Sequence record: MN850609.1
Length of the DNA stretch: 64,000 nt
Direction: 5' to 3' (one strand)
Source: Escherichia phage dhaeg
Both the position numbers and the translations under genes were made by a program. Below, one piece after another: positions 1,561 to 51,759 of the stretch; the first letter of the stretch is position 1; each line of letters begins with the position of its first letter. The notes beneath the pieces were generated by a model. The model searched no databases and had not been told where the DNA came from. It was given only the letters and a program-made list of their open reading frames with translations.

Positions 1561-2019
1561 ATGTCAGAAATTAATTCAGAAGTATTCATCCGCCGCAACA
1601 AATTACGTCGTCAGTTCGAAACCGAATTTCGTGAACTTAACGCGTCCATCAAAAAAGCCGCCATTAAGAGCGGTGTCCCAGCTTTCTTTATTAAGTACTC
1701 TAATCACTTGTTGGACCGTGCTATCCAACGTGAAATTGACGAAAAATATGTTTTCTCTTTGTTCAAGAAGCTCCATAATCATGTTAAAGAAATCCATGAA
1801 TTTTTAATCCAGGAGCCTCTTCCTGACATAGAATCTGAAATTGTCCCAGGTAAAGTGTATCGTCCACTGCGTCTCGAGATTACCGATAAAACCTTATGGT
1901 TGGGTATGACCGTAGATCGTAAACATCCTGATAAAGGATATTCATTAAAATGTCGTATGGCATTTGTTAATTCTAAACGTTTAGAAGGTAAAACCAGCAC
2001 GAAAGTAATCTATCTTTAA
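1561..2019 (+). CDS. regB: RegB endoribonuclease (cleaves GGAG in early mRNA Shine-Dalgarno regions)
   Basis: 152 aa; close match from memory to T4 RegB (EVFIRRNKLRR, HLLDRAIQREIDE, RLEITD); synteny upstream of tk. Confidence 0.85.
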   Translation: MSEINSEVFIRRNKLRRQFETEFRELNASIKKAAIKSGVPAFFIKYSNHLLDRAIQREIDEKYVFSLFKKLHNHVKEIHEFLIQEPLPDIESEIVPGKVYRPLRLEITDKTLWLGMTVDRKHPDKGYSLKCRMAFVNSKRLEGKTSTKVIYL

Positions 2020-2031
2020 TAATGAGGTCTC

Positions 2032-2571
2032 ATGAAAAAAGTATTAGCCACTTTACTATTGACAGTTAGTATGTCTGCCTATAGCGTAGAGCCTACTTTC
2101 AGTAATGAACAACTCGATAATTTACATTATGCGTATGCTTTCGGTGAACAATACCAAAAGTCGGGAAAGTTCAAAGAAAACCCTAATCAAAAAGGATTAG
2201 GATATATAATGGCCGGATTATTATGGCAGGAATCATCTGCTGGAATTAATCAAGGTTTAAATAAAGATAAGCACCATGCTTATGGCATGTTCCAAAATTA
2301 CTTGCCTACGTTAAGAAGTCGTGTTCAACAGGTAGGTTGGAAGATGTCAGACAAAGAAATAATTCGCATGGTCCAAAAACGACAGAACAGTGCCTCTTGG
2401 GCCTACATTGAGCTGTCTTATTGGATTGATGTTCACAAAGGTGACCTGAGAAAAGCGATTGCTTCTTATAATGCGGGCTGGAATGTCAAAGCAGGCAGTA
2501 AATATGCTTCCGAAGTTCTAGAAAAGGCCAATTACCTAAAATCTAAAAAGATGTTTGAGGCGGTATATTAA
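2032..2571 (+). CDS. secreted lytic transglycosylase (SLT domain) protein
   Basis: N-terminal signal peptide; SLT-like motifs WQESS, GMFQ, SYNAGW. Confidence 0.55.
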   Translation: MKKVLATLLLTVSMSAYSVEPTFSNEQLDNLHYAYAFGEQYQKSGKFKENPNQKGLGYIMAGLLWQESSAGINQGLNKDKHHAYGMFQNYLPTLRSRVQQVGWKMSDKEIIRMVQKRQNSASWAYIELSYWIDVHKGDLRKAIASYNAGWNVKAGSKYASEVLEKANYLKSKKMFEAVY

Positions 2572-2928
2572 ATGATTAAACAGATGACTATAGCGCTTAT
2601 GTTGATTGCTCCGGGAGTATTAGCATCACAGGTTGATGATACAAATAATTCAATTGTCGAGTATGCCACCCGTACAGCAAAAGATTATTGTCATCCGAGT
2701 AATACTGAATGTGTTATTGAATTCAGTTCAAAAATAACAGCTGCTTTTAAAGATGGACAGAACGACGTCGAGCATCGCCGAATGAAAGAGAAAACTCTTT
2801 CTAAAAGATACGAGCAACGTCTAAACGTTACTGAATGTGTTCCGTCTGATAAAAAGTACAAAGAAATGTGCGCGTCTATGGTAGACAGACTCGTTGACTC
2901 TTACAACCGAGGGCTAAACTCTAAATGA
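2572..2928 (+). CDS. secreted hypothetical protein
   Basis: 118 aa, signal-peptide-like N-terminus, cysteines. Confidence 0.45.
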   Translation: MIKQMTIALMLIAPGVLASQVDDTNNSIVEYATRTAKDYCHPSNTECVIEFSSKITAAFKDGQNDVEHRRMKEKTLSKRYEQRLNVTECVPSDKKYKEMCASMVDRLVDSYNRGLNSK

Positions 2929-3404
2929 TTATTGATTATATTAAGGGCGATATCGTCGCCCTGTTTCTTCAAGGTAATATTATTGCACACGGGTGCAACT
3001 GTTTTCATACTATGGGTTCAGGTGTGGCTGGTCAATTAGCAAAGGCCTATCCTAAAATATTAGAAATTGATAAGACCACTACTGAATATGGTTCTCGTGA
3101 TAAATTGGGTGATATGTCTATTGTTTTTAAACATAAGCCTAATGGATTTGCAATGTGCTATAATTTATACACCCAATACGAACCAGGCCCTAATCTTGAT
3201 TACGGTGCTTTAGTAAACTGTATGATAGAATTAAATCTACAAGCAAATGACCTTTTGTTTAAACCAAGAATTTATATTCCTCGCATTGGTTGTGGTATTG
3301 CTGGTGGTGATTGGGACAAGGTTTCTAAATTAATCGACATGTTTACTCCTGATATTGATTTAATAGTGGTGGATTATGAAAGCACATTACCCACATCCGT
3401 TTGA
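2925..3404 (+). CDS. macro domain protein (ADP-ribose binding / ADP-ribosylhydrolase fold)
   Basis: 159 aa; Gly-rich macro motif NCFHTMGSGVAGQLAKAYP; ATGA overlap upstream. Confidence 0.6.
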   Translation: MIIDYIKGDIVALFLQGNIIAHGCNCFHTMGSGVAGQLAKAYPKILEIDKTTTEYGSRDKLGDMSIVFKHKPNGFAMCYNLYTQYEPGPNLDYGALVNCMIELNLQANDLLFKPRIYIPRIGCGIAGGDWDKVSKLIDMFTPDIDLIVVDYESTLPTSV

Positions 3405-43433: not shown

Positions 43434-43463
43434 GTTTACTTTCTTATTGGACCGAGTTAAGAT
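43434..43463 (+). promoter_or_regulatory. early promoter (GTTTAC, weak -10)
   Basis: GTTTAC, about 17 bp, TAAGAT; GAGGAG RBS downstream. Confidence 0.45.
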
Positions 43464-44013: not shown

Positions 44014-44213
44014 TGAAACCTTTATCATGGCTTAAAGATTGGCTAGACCGTCCTGGTGATTATCTTGATGACGGTTGGTTAGACCAAGCTAACGCAGAAA
44101 TGAAACATGAATCTGAGGAATGGATTCTTAAAGGTATCCGTGAAGAACGCGAAAAGAAATTAGAACGCGAGGCCCTTAGGATTATGCGTGATATCTATGG
44201 GGATAAATCATGA
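44013..44213 (+). CDS. hypothetical protein
   Basis: 66-aa ORF. Confidence 0.4.
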
Positions 44214-44377
44214 CTATTGAAGAAGCTGAAGCACGTACTAAAGAGGCAATGGATTTGCTTCTTAAAATTGGTAGTAAAATGATGGAAGAAAACGAGAAAT
44301 ACATCCAGGAAAATAAAATTCCGGATGGCCCTTTAGTAGGTAAACTAAAAAGAGGAAAACATAATGAAAGTTTATGA
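44210..44377 (+). CDS. hypothetical small protein (unlisted ORF)
   Basis: 55 codons read by hand; ATGA overlap upstream. Confidence 0.3.
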
Positions 44378-44855: not shown

Positions 44856-45043
44856 TGGACTTATTTGATATGTTCGTCATTCCGGACCCTGAGCCTGAAA
44901 CAACTCAGGAGCCGCCTATTGACCTTGTCAATGAACTTGATATGATTATACAGAAGCACGGCTTTAAGTTGCCTAAAGATGCCCTGGCCGACCTAGCTTC
45001 TTACTATCAAGACCCTCCACCATGGGCACCTTGGGTAAAATAA
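44855..45043 (+). CDS. hypothetical acidic protein
   Basis: 62-aa ORF. Confidence 0.4.
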   Translation: MDLFDMFVIPDPEPETTQEPPIDLVNELDMIIQKHGFKLPKDALADLASYYQDPPPWAPWVK

Positions 45044-45276
45044 TGAATTGGCTAACAAATATACCTACATCGGCATTAGATATAGACCGTAAACAAGCTC
45101 GTAAGGAAATCGAGCAAAAAAATATTCAGGCAAAAGCTCCTAAGATTATGACCAAGGCGCCGGAAATAAAAAGCTCTTATCAACCAAAAAGCTCTTATAC
45201 TTCATATACCCAATCCTTAACAGGCCAAGCTGCTGACATTGCAGTGTTTGGCGTCCCACTTGGTGTGTTTAAGTAG
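45043..45276 (+). CDS. hypothetical protein
   Basis: internal ATG at TAATG junction of ORF 45022-45276. Confidence 0.4.
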   Translation: MNWLTNIPTSALDIDRKQARKEIEQKNIQAKAPKIMTKAPEIKSSYQPKSSYTSYTQSLTGQAADIAVFGVPLGVFK

Positions 45277-45304
45277 TTTACACCTCCTCCCTTCATGTTA
45301 TAAT
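45276..45304 (+). promoter_or_regulatory. early promoter (GTTTAC / TATAAT)
   Basis: GTTTAC, 17 bp, TATAAT; ACCTCC in spacer complementary to downstream GGAGGT SD. Confidence 0.6.
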
Positions 45305-45328
45305 GACCTCTAAATCACTGGAGGTCAT

Positions 45329-45898
45329 ATGAACATCGAACAAAAATGTCTTTATCAAGACCGAATCAATTCTAAATTTTCAAAATCTGAACAAGCGTTG
45401 TTAGAGAAATGTCTGGATGCCAAAAAAGACCCTAACTTCCATTATGACCTAGACAAACTAGTTCGTAAGCATGTTACTTCGGTCGTTCCGGTAGAGCTTT
45501 ATCGTGGGATTACTCCAAGAGAACTTGAGCAACTTGAAGTTCTTTCTGTCGGATGCCAGTGGTCTCCCGGCCGTGTTACTTCTTTTAGTACACAATACTC
45601 TCAGGCTCGTCAGTTCGCAGGGGCGTGGGAATATGGAACTAAAACCATCTTAAGTCTCAGGAATGCACCGTTCATTTTCGACTACTACAATCATGCTATC
45701 GACCTTGTTCTTGCAGGGAATGTGGACGAACTTGAAATAGATGAAACCCGGATAGACCTCTATGATATGGTCGAAACTGAATGTGAGTTCATGGTCTCTA
45801 GTCTATCACGGTTCGAGATTGTGGAAATCGAAACTATCAAAAGAGACCCATACGAAATCGAGTACAAAATAATTCATTTAAAAATGTTAGATTTTTAG
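45329..45898 (+). CDS. modB: mono-ADP-ribosyltransferase, Mod family (modB position)
   Basis: 189 aa; R-S-ExE class motifs LYRG, SFS, ECEF; paralog of next gene; synteny between soc and dda. Confidence 0.6.
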   Translation: MNIEQKCLYQDRINSKFSKSEQALLEKCLDAKKDPNFHYDLDKLVRKHVTSVVPVELYRGITPRELEQLEVLSVGCQWSPGRVTSFSTQYSQARQFAGAWEYGTKTILSLRNAPFIFDYYNHAIDLVLAGNVDELEIDETRIDLYDMVETECEFMVSSLSRFEIVEIETIKRDPYEIEYKIIHLKMLDF

Positions 45899-45927
45899 TT
45901 TACAGGCAAGGATGCTTGTGGTACTAT
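45898..45927 (+). promoter_or_regulatory. early promoter (GTTTAC / TACTAT)
   Basis: GTTTAC, 18 bp, TACTAT. Confidence 0.6.
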
Positions 45928-45952
45928 CTTTCTATCAACTGAGGAGAATAAT

Positions 45953-46567
45953 ATGTTATATCCAAATCATAAATTATCAGAGTTCTATGACAATGTTAAA
46001 TGTGATGATTTCCGTGAAAACATTCAGGGTGAAATAGACGGGCAGTACTCTGATTTAGAACAGAGTGTCCTCTGGCAGTGCATGGAAAATAAACCTGATT
46101 CTATCCAAGAAACTTTGAACAAAATCATTCGTAAGAATCTAACTTCTGTAGTGCCTGACAAACTGTACCGTGGAATTTCTAAGAAAACTTTGAAATACCT
46201 CGAATCGGTAGGATGTGTTGGTGCCACAATTGAATTTGACAGAGTAATGAGCTTCTCTAAAGATTTTAAGGTGGCCCGTAACTTTGCTTCATATAATTTT
46301 TACGGAACCAAAAATATTTTCTGTATTAATGATGCACCTTTTGCATTTGATTACCAGGAAGCAATCTTTAAAATGATTTGTGGCGCTCCTCCCGAAGAGT
46401 TCAACGGGCCATATCCAGAAATAACTCGTACTTCAAACTTGCAATTAGTAAACGATGAAGATGAGATGATGTTCCCTGCGGGAACTACGCTACGCGTAGA
46501 CTCTATTGAGAGAGTTTGTGGATGGCAAGATTATACATTATGGAATCTTTCCGTTCTTTCTTACTGA
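45953..46567 (+). CDS. modA: mono-ADP-ribosyltransferase, Mod family (modA position)
   Basis: 204 aa; LYRG, SFS, EDEMMF; paralog of upstream gene. Confidence 0.6.
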   Translation: MLYPNHKLSEFYDNVKCDDFRENIQGEIDGQYSDLEQSVLWQCMENKPDSIQETLNKIIRKNLTSVVPDKLYRGISKKTLKYLESVGCVGATIEFDRVMSFSKDFKVARNFASYNFYGTKNIFCINDAPFAFDYQEAIFKMICGAPPEEFNGPYPEITRTSNLQLVNDEDEMMFPAGTTLRVDSIERVCGWQDYTLWNLSVLSY

Positions 46568-46636: not shown

Positions 46637-46665
46637 GTTTACTTTATTAAGCAACATGATACTAT
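46637..46665 (+). promoter_or_regulatory. early promoter (GTTTAC / TACTAT)
   Basis: AAAAAAGTGTTTAC, 17 bp, TACTAT, AGACCTATCAACT. Confidence 0.65.
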
Positions 46666-46705
46666 AGACCTATCAACTAATCGTCCGTAAGATGAGAAAA
46701 ATATC

Positions 46706-47455
46706 ATGCCTACTATTAAAACTAACGATGAATTTGAGTTAAAGGTTTACAACCGCCGCAAACACACCAAAGCTTCTGCTTGTAAACGCGGTAAGGACTT
46801 CAATCTGTCTAGTAAGTATGTTCGTAGACTTCTCGAACAAAAAGTGTGCGCTTATTCGGGCGAGTACTTTGATGAAAATTCAGTTAATGACAAGATTTCA
46901 TTTGAACGTTTTAACAACGATATCGGCTATATTGAGGGTAATGTAATCCCAGTTAAAGTTAAGTATAACAGCTTACGTGCCGATTTGTCCCTTGATGAAC
47001 TGAAACGTGCTCAGACTCGTTTAGCAGTTCGTATTTCAGGTAGTTCTAAAATGCCTAATAGTTTTAAAGTTACTCCTGATAACTATTATAAAATCCGTAA
47101 AATCGTTAAAAATATAAAAGATACCCAAAGAGGTCTTAAAAAACGTGAAAAACGTCTTAAAGACCTTATTAAATCAGGAGCTACTGATAAGACTCCTTCT
47201 GTTATCGCAGTTAAGGCCCGTATCCACGGTTCTAACGCTTCAATCGGTACTATGGAAAAAGGTCTTAAATCTTTAATTGGTGGGCCTGATTGGCGTGTCA
47301 AGTTTAAATTGTCTGAAGCAGAAACGCGTTACGATATGTATGATAAAATTATTCAAGGTCTGGAGCGTTTAGAACACCTTTCTTTTATTGACAAATTGAA
47401 GTTGAAAAAAGGTCTTCCATTGAATGCTTCAATTTTTTCACTGATTAGAGGTTAA
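46706..47455 (+). CDS. Srd-like protein (by position between mod genes and dda)
   Basis: 249 aa; basic C-terminal half; synteny and size match T4 srd as recalled. Confidence 0.35.
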   Translation: MPTIKTNDEFELKVYNRRKHTKASACKRGKDFNLSSKYVRRLLEQKVCAYSGEYFDENSVNDKISFERFNNDIGYIEGNVIPVKVKYNSLRADLSLDELKRAQTRLAVRISGSSKMPNSFKVTPDNYYKIRKIVKNIKDTQRGLKKREKRLKDLIKSGATDKTPSVIAVKARIHGSNASIGTMEKGLKSLIGGPDWRVKFKLSEAETRYDMYDKIIQGLERLEHLSFIDKLKLKKGLPLNASIFSLIRG

Positions 47456-51121: not shown

Positions 51122-51150
51122 GTTTACTTTATCGAGAGCCATGTTATAAT
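51122..51150 (+). promoter_or_regulatory. early promoter (GTTTAC / TATAAT) with palindrome GAGAGCCAT/ATGGCTCTC bracketing the -10
   Basis: GTTTAC, 17 bp, TATAAT; perfect 9-bp inverted repeat. Confidence 0.6.
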
Positions 51151-51192
51151 GGCTCTCATGGATTATAAACCTTTAACCAAGAGAGAAAAATT

Positions 51193-51759
51193 ATGATTAC
51201 TATTTCCGATATCGGCAGTATCGTTCGTGTATCCAAAAAGTCTCGTTCAAAAGCTGCGGGCAGTTTAGTTGAAGTTGTTAGCATCCAACTTAAAGAAGGT
51301 GTCAGTGAAGAAAATTATGAAGTAAAAGTTCGTATCATTCCTAAAAATCGCCAGACTGAAACTCAATTCGGTTATGTGCGTGCTAAATTCTTGGAATCGA
51401 CTGAATTTACCGGATACATCGCTCCTGTAGTTGAAGAAGTTGAATCCCATGATGGGTATGTATGTGAAAGCAATGATATCCGTGGCGTAGTAGCTCAAGA
51501 CATTGAAACTATTGACCAATCTCATGTCGGCGTTGATTTCAAATGGAAATTAGGTCGAGGAGTGTGTTTTAATACTCCTAAACCGTTCAAATATGTTGAC
51601 GAACCTTTTGGTACTTACGAAACCAGTAGCATGTCTGGTTACATCACAGACCAGTGGGTTGAAGGTGGCGTTAAGCTCTATAACATCGTGTTCCTTGGAA
51701 CCTTTAAAGTGGTTCCTGAAAGCTTTATTGTTGAATATGCTAATATTCATCGTGCATAA
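51193..51759 (+). CDS. hypothetical protein, paralog family member B
   Basis: 188 aa; C-terminal TDQWVEGGVKLYNIVFLGTF shared with upstream gene. Confidence 0.5.
   Translation: MITISDIGSIVRVSKKSRSKAAGSLVEVVSIQLKEGVSEENYEVKVRIIPKNRQTETQFGYVRAKFLESTEFTGYIAPVVEEVESHDGYVCESNDIRGVVAQDIETIDQSHVGVDFKWKLGRGVCFNTPKPFKYVDEPFGTYETSSMSGYITDQWVEGGVKLYNIVFLGTFKVVPESFIVEYANIHRA

Follow-up and report, generated by a model that had tools for sequence, protein, structure and literature searches.

The window analysed here, a stretch of 64,000 nucleotides from Escherichia phage dhaeg (sequence record MN850609.1), contains two adjacent open reading frames (ORFs), here called ORF1 and ORF2. These very probably are the Dhakavirus versions of the early genes modB and modA of phage T4, that is, arginine-specific mono-ADP-ribosyltransferases of the R-S-E clade that depend on nicotinamide adenine dinucleotide (NAD), each expressed from its own strong early promoter (Table 1). 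The reading is built on homology, a catalytic motif, predicted fold, synteny, promoter motifs and a leader hairpin, from which activity, targets and timing of expression are inferred. The two genes are separated by a spacer of 54 nucleotides and are part of the early region, where modA.2 precedes and srd-dda follows them, in the order mrh.2, mrh.1, srh, modA.4-like ORF, modA.3 (Mrh-like), modA.2, an ORF of 84 amino acids, ORF1, ORF2, srd, dda.1 and dda. The identities of Mrh, Srd and Dda in this neighbourhood were confirmed by Pfam and PHROG. The 1.9 kb tested around the pair are 100% identical to the corresponding DNA of Escherichia phage dhabil (MN850621.1; Straboviridae, Tevenvirinae, Dhakavirus) and about 90% identical to that of JS98. 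In GenBank, dhabil_79 is labelled 'ADP-ribosylase' and dhabil_78 'RNA polymerase ADP-ribosylase', and the counterparts in the Dhakavirus phages JS98, IME08 and JS10 are named modB and modA. The gene pair and its ModB/ModA interpretation are already known and annotated in GenBank (JS98, IME08, dhabil), and the finding is an ordinary one that mainly confirms this annotation. To it, some modest additions can be made: a separate promoter for the ModA-type gene that is not present in T4, a mosaic upstream slot and a covarying leader hairpin.

Table 1. Features of the mod locus, numbered from the first letter of the window; catalytic candidates are numbered by residue
Feature	Position	Strand	Details
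ORF1, upstream Mod-family ADP-ribosyltransferase, putative ModB-type	45329-45898	+	189 aa, ATG start; same as dhabil_79
ORF1 catalytic candidates	R59, S85/S87, E151/E153		From alignment
Predicted ORF1 promoter, early-type sigma-70	45276-45304	+	G+TTTACA (-35, 45277-45282), 16-nt spacer with TG, TATAAT (-10, 45299-45304)
RNA hairpin, ORF1 leader	45299-45331	+	5′ arm 45299-45312 (-10 hexamer and 8 nt); 3′ arm 45319-45331 (Shine-Dalgarno sequence and AUG)
ORF1 Shine-Dalgarno sequence, GGAGG	45320-45324	+	Inside the 3′ arm of the hairpin
ORF2, downstream Mod-family ADP-ribosyltransferase, putative ModA-type	45953-46567	+	204 aa, ATG start; same as dhabil_78
ORF2 catalytic candidates	R73, S100/S102, E169/E171		From alignment
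Predicted ORF2 promoter, early-type	45898-45939	+	G+TTTACA (45899-45904), 17-nt spacer with TG, TACTAT (45922-45927), leader CTATCAAC (45932-45939)
ORF2 Shine-Dalgarno sequence, GAGGAG	45941-45946	+	
Predicted srd promoter, third early-type, bounding the mod unit	46637-46665	+	GTTTACT-16-TACTAT
srd	46706-47455	+	PHROG 1400, E 1e-91

Membership of the Mod family is indicated by several comparisons. ORF1 and ORF2 are paralogs of each other (35% identity, E 3e-28), and both match PHROG 832, 'RNA polymerase ADP-ribosylase' (E 7e-38 for ORF1 and 2e-41 for ORF2). By BLASTP, ORF1 is 33.5% identical to T4 ModB (NP_049636; E 1e-24). ORF2 matches both T4 enzymes, with 33% identity to ModA (NP_049635) over its full length (E 6e-22, 76 bits) and 37% to ModB over part of its length (E 5e-28, 92 bits); T4 ModA and ModB are themselves 30% identical. 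The precomputed domain PF26816 is recorded on every homolog. In a survey of viral NAD and ADP-ribose systems, the 'Mod family of the RSE clade' is treated as a family of its own (PMC9503650), and tblastn places Mod-family genes in 1,075 phage records, mainly of phages of Escherichia, Klebsiella, Shigella and other enterobacteria.

The catalytic motif is preserved in both proteins. It is found in ORF1 as LYRG (residues 57-60), SFS (85-87) and ECEF (151-154), and in ORF2 as LYRG (71-74), SFS (100-102) and EDEMMF (169-174). When the two are aligned with T4 ModA and ModB, the arginine of L(Y/W)RG, the first serine of S-x-S/T and both glutamates of E-x-E are invariant, and the same columns remain invariant across 24 homologs, down to 30% identity. 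More specifically, R59, G60, S85, E151 and E153 of ORF1 align with R73, G74, S99, E171 and E173 of T4 ModB. It is known that the R73A/G74A variant of T4 ModB is catalytically dead in vitro and that the phage carrying it is impaired (PMC10468400), and E173 is described as essential in a passage of a preprint that cites Tiemann 2004 (bioRxiv 10.1101/2025.07.11.664405). Chance might produce an R/SxS/ExE pattern on its own, but not the homology seen here. The first-pass annotation, made from the letters of the window, had proposed a pair of adjacent proteins of 189 and 204 amino acids with R, S-x-S and E-x-E motifs, and had taken them for Mod-type ADP-ribosyltransferase paralogs in the slot that modB and modA occupy in T4. 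This proposal holds in each respect: the coordinates are exact and the quoted motifs present, the relationship is seen in PHROG 832, in BLASTP and in the mutual identity of the pair, and the genes stand between modA.2 and srd in a T4-like gene order. The alignment with ModA and ModB that it had recommended places the arginine and the second glutamate on ModB R73 and E173. Loss of the catalytic glutamate, the weak point that it had named, was not found, because these arginine and glutamate columns are invariant and aligned with those of ModB.

Predicted structures lead to the same family. AlphaFold2 models built on 24-sequence alignments reached a mean predicted local distance difference test score (pLDDT) of 87.6 and a predicted template modelling score (pTM) of 0.83 for ORF1, and of 90.2 and 0.84 for ORF2. 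When compared with the PDB by Foldseek, the ORF1 model matched C3, Certhrax, VIP2, CDTa and iota toxin (E ~3e-7, template modelling (TM) score up to 0.59), and the ORF2 model matched C3, Certhrax, XopAI, CDTa and VIP2 (E ~1e-7). C3bot, C3larvin and Tre1 were also among the top matches; over the top matches of both models, the probability was 1.00 and TM scores were 0.43-0.59. There were more than 100 PDB matches at E <= 0.001 and, among the matches listed, 50 of 50 for each model were ADP-ribosyltransferase (ART) toxins or effectors of the R-S-E type. As modelled, both proteins are complete ART domains, whose relationship to known ART structures is visible at the level of the fold only. Separately, searches of the sequences against solved structures returned matches to TrmB and PARP4, which were taken as chance.

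Which copy corresponds to which T4 gene was approached with a neighbour-joining tree (Kimura distances, 194 columns, 200 bootstraps). In this tree, ORF2 and all other downstream copies cluster with T4 ModA, itself on a long branch, at 78% bootstrap. ORF1 joins the Mosigvirus upstream copy at 100% and next, more weakly (58%), the single-copy genes of metagenomic contigs, including a Klebsiella phage protein (vB_KpnM_Potts1). Because it groups with T4 ModA at 78%, ORF2 is probably the ModA ortholog. In addition, the signatures NKPD, FD(R/K)V and M(I/F)PAG are common to ORF2 and T4 ModA and absent from the upstream copies. ORF1 is ModB-like by its position and by the architecture of its leader, and is a candidate ortholog of T4 ModB. 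A tandem pair is present in Tequatrovirus, Mosigvirus, Dhakavirus and Gaprivervirus, and in these four genera the order is the same, with the ModB-like gene upstream and the ModA-like gene downstream. Karamvirus, Krischvirus and Jiaodavirus have a single copy.

The two genes differ in how they vary. Within Dhakavirus, ORF1 is 96-98% identical, with synonymous and nonsynonymous codon differences in a ratio of about 43:4, whereas ORF2 is 82-89% identical, with ratios from 41:22 to 66:34. Judged by these ratios, both genes are under purifying selection. There are 47 variable sites among the 204 residues of ORF2, against 18 among the 189 of ORF1, and those of ORF2 are concentrated in residues 1-40, in the N-terminal helices, and 187-196, at the C-terminus, away from the motif residues. 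This pattern fits, without proving, a divergence of target-recognition surfaces. Between genera, the situation is another one. In Gaprivervirus SP18 (Shigella phage SP18; positions 1896-3115 of retrieved locus L007), ORF2 has a downstream counterpart of 84% identity, but ORF1 and the gene in the upstream slot share only 32%, and the nearest relative of that upstream gene is the single-copy gene of Klebsiella phage JD18. The pair is a mosaic, and these identities suggest that the upstream cassette was replaced.

Both mod genes are preceded, on the coding strand, by the elements expected of a T4 early promoter, namely, a -35 GTTTAC, a TGn and a -10 TAnnnT at a spacing of 16-17 nucleotides. T4 early promoters are known to be of this UP/-35/TGn/-10 type (PMC2988021), and T4 ModA and ModB have been detected as early proteins (PMC9697503). 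The promoter of ORF1 agrees with the consensus at 11 of 12 positions, and the same architecture stands 5′ of the first mod gene in T4, Mosigvirus, Karamvirus, Jiaodavirus and Gaprivervirus. A generic sigma-70 scan of the region found 14 sites, against 12.6 expected in shuffled sequences, so that such sites are not enriched. By contrast, 24 sites of the + strand and none of the - strand fit the pattern GTTTAC[AT]-N16/17-TAnnnT, with about two expected from Markov simulations. A longer pattern, TAnnAT-N4-CTATCAAC, which includes the ORF2 and srd promoters, has 11 copies, all on the + strand, where 0.04 would be expected. Moreover, the -35, TG, -10 and leader of the intergenic promoter are kept in Dhakavirus, Mosigvirus and Gaprivervirus relatives, although the sequence of the spacer varies. 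The sequence thus gives good support to the claim of the first-pass annotation that each gene has an early promoter of its own, both sites being instances of an over-represented, strand-specific motif of the T4 early type, and this arrangement would represent a real difference from T4. The stretch at 45900-45921, between the genes, was considered as a terminator or hairpin and rejected, as its fold is no better than that of shuffled sequences (z = -1.27) and it has no T-run. As there is no strong terminator between them, co-transcription of ORF1 and ORF2 is expected in any case.

Some further observations concern the leader element. The copies of TAnnAT-N4-CTATCAAC start at positions 1527, 5662, 10568, 39026, 39984, 45922, 46660, 50030, 51796, 59860 and 60582. 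Seven of the 11 have an identical AGACCTATCAAC leader, six as TACTATAGACCTATCAAC and one as TATTATAGACCTATCAAC. A leader of the CTATCAAC type is also present in Mosigvirus and Gaprivervirus intergenic regions, and was not found in the two T4 promoter regions examined, those of modB and srd. It looks like the conserved, initially transcribed leader of a subclass of early promoters.

The start of ORF1 is contained in a further conserved feature, an RNA hairpin whose 5′ arm includes the -10 box of the promoter and whose 3′ arm includes the Shine-Dalgarno (SD) sequence and the initiation codon. This hairpin folds at -15.9 kcal/mol (z = -5.3; none of 200 shuffles as good), while a leader beginning at the inferred start site, near 45311, is unstructured (0 kcal/mol). 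The full hairpin is present only in transcripts begun upstream of the ORF1 promoter. Covariation was studied in 20 distinct leaders of first mod genes, which included those of T4, Mosigvirus, Karamvirus, Jiaodavirus, Gaprivervirus and IMG/VR contigs. Over these leaders, 92.7% of the cells of the 14-pair helix are paired, against 37-55% in slid registers, and compensatory double changes are observed at six pairs (27 cells), values that none of 500 shuffles reached. As U-G pairs are frequent, the hairpin is one of the sense strand, which is what would be expected of an mRNA. Thus, the features of a hairpin that sequesters a ribosome-binding site (RBS) and has a promoter embedded in it are found together here, with the SD and AUG in the helix, the 5′ arm upstream of the start site, and covariation. 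A similar RBS-sequestering hairpin was looked for at ORF2 and not found (z = 0.3 to 0.8). No description of a modB leader hairpin was found in the available literature, a search outside which Tiemann 2004 fell.

The consequences for translation can be outlined as follows. Since the DNA that leads from the promoter at 43434 down to ORF1 has no terminator-like site, read-through transcripts into ORF1 should exist. In such transcripts, the SD and AUG of ORF1 would be paired with the -10 box, making ORF1 untranslatable, whereas transcripts from its own promoter would be without the 5′ arm and remain accessible to translation. Judging from the sequence, ORF1 should be translated only from transcripts of its own promoter, with read-through ones silenced. 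A broader proposal is offered only tentatively, as one that may well turn out otherwise. According to it, the leader hairpin would be a conserved gate in Tequatro-, Mosig-, Dhaka-, Gapriver-, Karam- and Jiaodavirus that confines a toxic ModB-type enzyme to own-promoter transcripts in the first minutes and silences read-through (delayed-early) ones; the upstream slot would be an exchangeable cassette; and the ModA-type gene would have gained an independent promoter in some genera.

A comparable arrangement was observed elsewhere in the window. At 51122-51197, a second early-type promoter, GTTTACT-16-TATAAT (at 51122), has a -10 region that pairs with the SD and AUG of a MotB-like gene (51193-51759, PHROG 1671), the leader of which folds at -15.5 kcal/mol (z = -4.6). 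In the T4 motB leader, examined for comparison, pairing of this type is not evident.

If ORF1 and ORF2 are indeed ModB- and ModA-type enzymes, their action can be sketched from what is known of T4. There, ModA ADP-ribosylates Arg265 of the RNA polymerase alpha subunit (PMC2988021, PMC3014915), and S1, L2, EF-Tu and trigger factor are substrates of ModB in both ADP-ribosylation and RNAylation (PMC2988021, PMC3014915, PMC10468400). In the phage studied here, host sigma-70 RNA polymerase would transcribe both genes immediately after infection. By homology, the ORF2 product would then ADP-ribosylate Arg265 of both alpha subunits of the polymerase, a modification expected to remove its contacts with UP elements and activators. 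The ORF1 product, again by homology, would modify the translation proteins S1, EF-Tu and trigger factor, to which it may attach NAD-capped RNA, and may RNAylate S1 and L2. With identities of 33-37%, these target assignments are plausible and unproven, and the notion that the two copies have different targets is drawn only from the analogy with T4.

Several results weigh against the identification of the pair with modB and modA, or against parts of it. The low identity to the characterised T4 enzymes, of only 33-37%, means that target specificity may differ. BLASTP gave no match between ORF1 and T4 ModA. The tree puts ORF1 and T4 ModB together in the non-ModA grade with a bootstrap of only 20-25%. 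No Pfam or NCBIfam family was matched above threshold, the weak matches being to ADPrib_exo_Tox, DRAT and XopAI only. With ADPrib_exo_Tox (PF03496), ORF2 scored 11.7 bits (E 0.16), below the cutoff of 23.4 bits, and ORF1 had no match; six of 24 family members match it weakly (lowest E 0.0089). No significant ART was retrieved from the solved structures, whether these were searched with single sequences or with a profile. Finally, the start site of ORF1, at about 45311-45313, was placed from hexamer spacing only.

Some of these points touch on other ways of explaining the locus. It might be proposed, for instance, that the two copies stem from a recent duplication in the Dhakavirus/Mosigvirus lineage, in which case they would not be equivalent to T4 modB/modA and would be redundant rather than specialised. 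The slightly higher score of ORF2 against T4 ModB than against ModA is in keeping with this, as are the similarity of ORF1 to ORF2, which equals that of either to a T4 enzyme, and the single-copy Karamvirus protein, whose identity to the two copies is nearly the same (44% and 41%). Nevertheless, a recent duplication does not account for the tree, which unites all downstream copies with T4 ModA, apart from all upstream and single copies, nor for the three signatures that ORF2 shares with T4 ModA and not with the upstream copies, or for the constant order of ModB-like and ModA-like genes across four genera, and it is considered unlikely. Another proposal accepts the genes as modB and modA but takes the intergenic element for no working promoter, its promoter-like look being incidental, so that ORF2 would be read through from the ORF1 promoter, as modA is from the modB promoter in T4. 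Indeed, the -10 TACTAT matches the consensus at only four of six positions, the whole site, at 9 of 12, is no better than sites in shuffled sequence, and no strong terminator separates the genes. However, the strand bias and excess of the early-type motif, the 11 sites of the longer pattern, this one included, and the retention of hexamers, TG and leader in relatives despite a changing spacer are difficult to reconcile with a non-functional element, and read-through as the sole source of ORF2 transcripts seems rather improbable.

It could also be argued that one of the copies is an inactive or re-purposed protein with an ART fold, acting as a decoy, an NAD-binding regulator or an enzyme that modifies nucleic acids. 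ORF1 lacks about 16 N-terminal residues that other family members have, ORF2 evolves fast within its genus, and T4 ModB itself already shows an unusual chemistry in RNAylation (PMC10468400). Yet both copies and each of the 24 homologs examined have the arginine, glycine, S-x-S and E-x-E without variation, the sites at which ORF2 varies lie in the N-terminal helices and the C-terminus rather than around the motif, and both models fold confidently as complete ART domains, so that a loss or change of function in either copy appears very unlikely. The interpretation of ORF1 and ORF2 as two early Mod-family ADP-ribosyltransferases with separate promoters is therefore the preferred one.

The neighbourhood of the pair offers additional observations. 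An ORF of 84 amino acids (45022-45276; PHROG 14077, function not known) lies directly 5′ of the ORF1 promoter. In MX01, JS10, LQ5 and E33 the DNA match begins only at query position 278, so that in these phages the ORF or its region is either lacking or of another kind. Farther upstream, dhabil_83 (44210-44377) and its equivalent at positions 1475-1639 of retrieved locus L003 are early ORFs of 54-55 amino acids, counterparts of T4 modA.4 that belong to PHROG 2681, a family without known function. The GenBank name given to this ORF is 'molybdenum ABC transporter, periplasmic molybdenum-binding protein ModA'. This label appears to be an annotation error by name collision, propagated among the records of T4-like phages. 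On the other side of the pair, the 5′ leader of srd (46680-46708) reads CGTCCGTAAGA(T/C)(G/A)(A/T)GAG(A/G)AAAATAT(C/T)ATG and is nearly identical in dhabil, T4, AV112 and SP18 despite diverged surroundings; a role as translational operator or processing site is possible.

In T4-like phages, two early ADP-ribosyltransferases reprogram host transcription and translation, and interest in ModB has been renewed by the attachment of RNA to proteins. Between genera, divergence is far greater in the upstream slot than in the ModA slot, which makes the upstream genes a source of natural variants for work on target specificity and RNAylation. The covarying leader hairpin, in turn, suggests a simple limit on when a toxic enzyme is made. 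The uncoupling promoter, the divergent upstream slot and the hairpin may be of modest use to specialists.

The genes closest to ORF1 and ORF2 are the modB and modA genes of JS98, IME08 and JS10 and dhabil_79 and dhabil_78, which are the same genes and differ in nothing substantial; their annotations make no mention of promoters or of a hairpin. In predicted structure, the bacterial toxins C3 exoenzyme, VIP2, iota Ia, CDTa and Certhrax are the best matches of both models. Nevertheless, the sequence identity of bacterial R-S-E toxins to ORF1 and ORF2 is just 10-17%, at TM scores of 0.43-0.59, and the toxins are secreted, whereas the phage proteins are intracellular early proteins. As for the leader of ORF1, hairpins that sequester an RBS and have an embedded promoter are documented for the T4 genes e, soc, 49 and I-TevI (PMC3014915). 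In these, as in ORF1, the SD and AUG are paired in long transcripts and the promoter lies inside the 5′ arm. However, the embedded promoter is a late one in those T4 genes and an early one in ORF1; consequently, the predicted effect is to confine translation to immediate-early transcripts.

The comparison with the T4 mod genes themselves is the most direct. T4 has the same gene order, on the opposite strand. T4 ModA (200 amino acids) and ORF2 (204) align end to end with the same R-S-ExE columns, and the genes of both are directly upstream of srd. T4 modB and ORF1 are each the upstream gene of their pair and have in common the architecture of promoter and leader hairpin, but the ORF1 protein is shorter by 18 amino acids (189 against 207), as it lacks the N-terminal residues mentioned above. 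An overlap of four nucleotides (ATGA) joins modB to modA in T4 and in all Tequatrovirus loci retrieved, with no promoter between the two, whereas ORF2 appears to have its own. Thus, where T4 couples its mod genes through this overlap, Dhakavirus, Mosigvirus and Gaprivervirus would uncouple them by means of a separate promoter.

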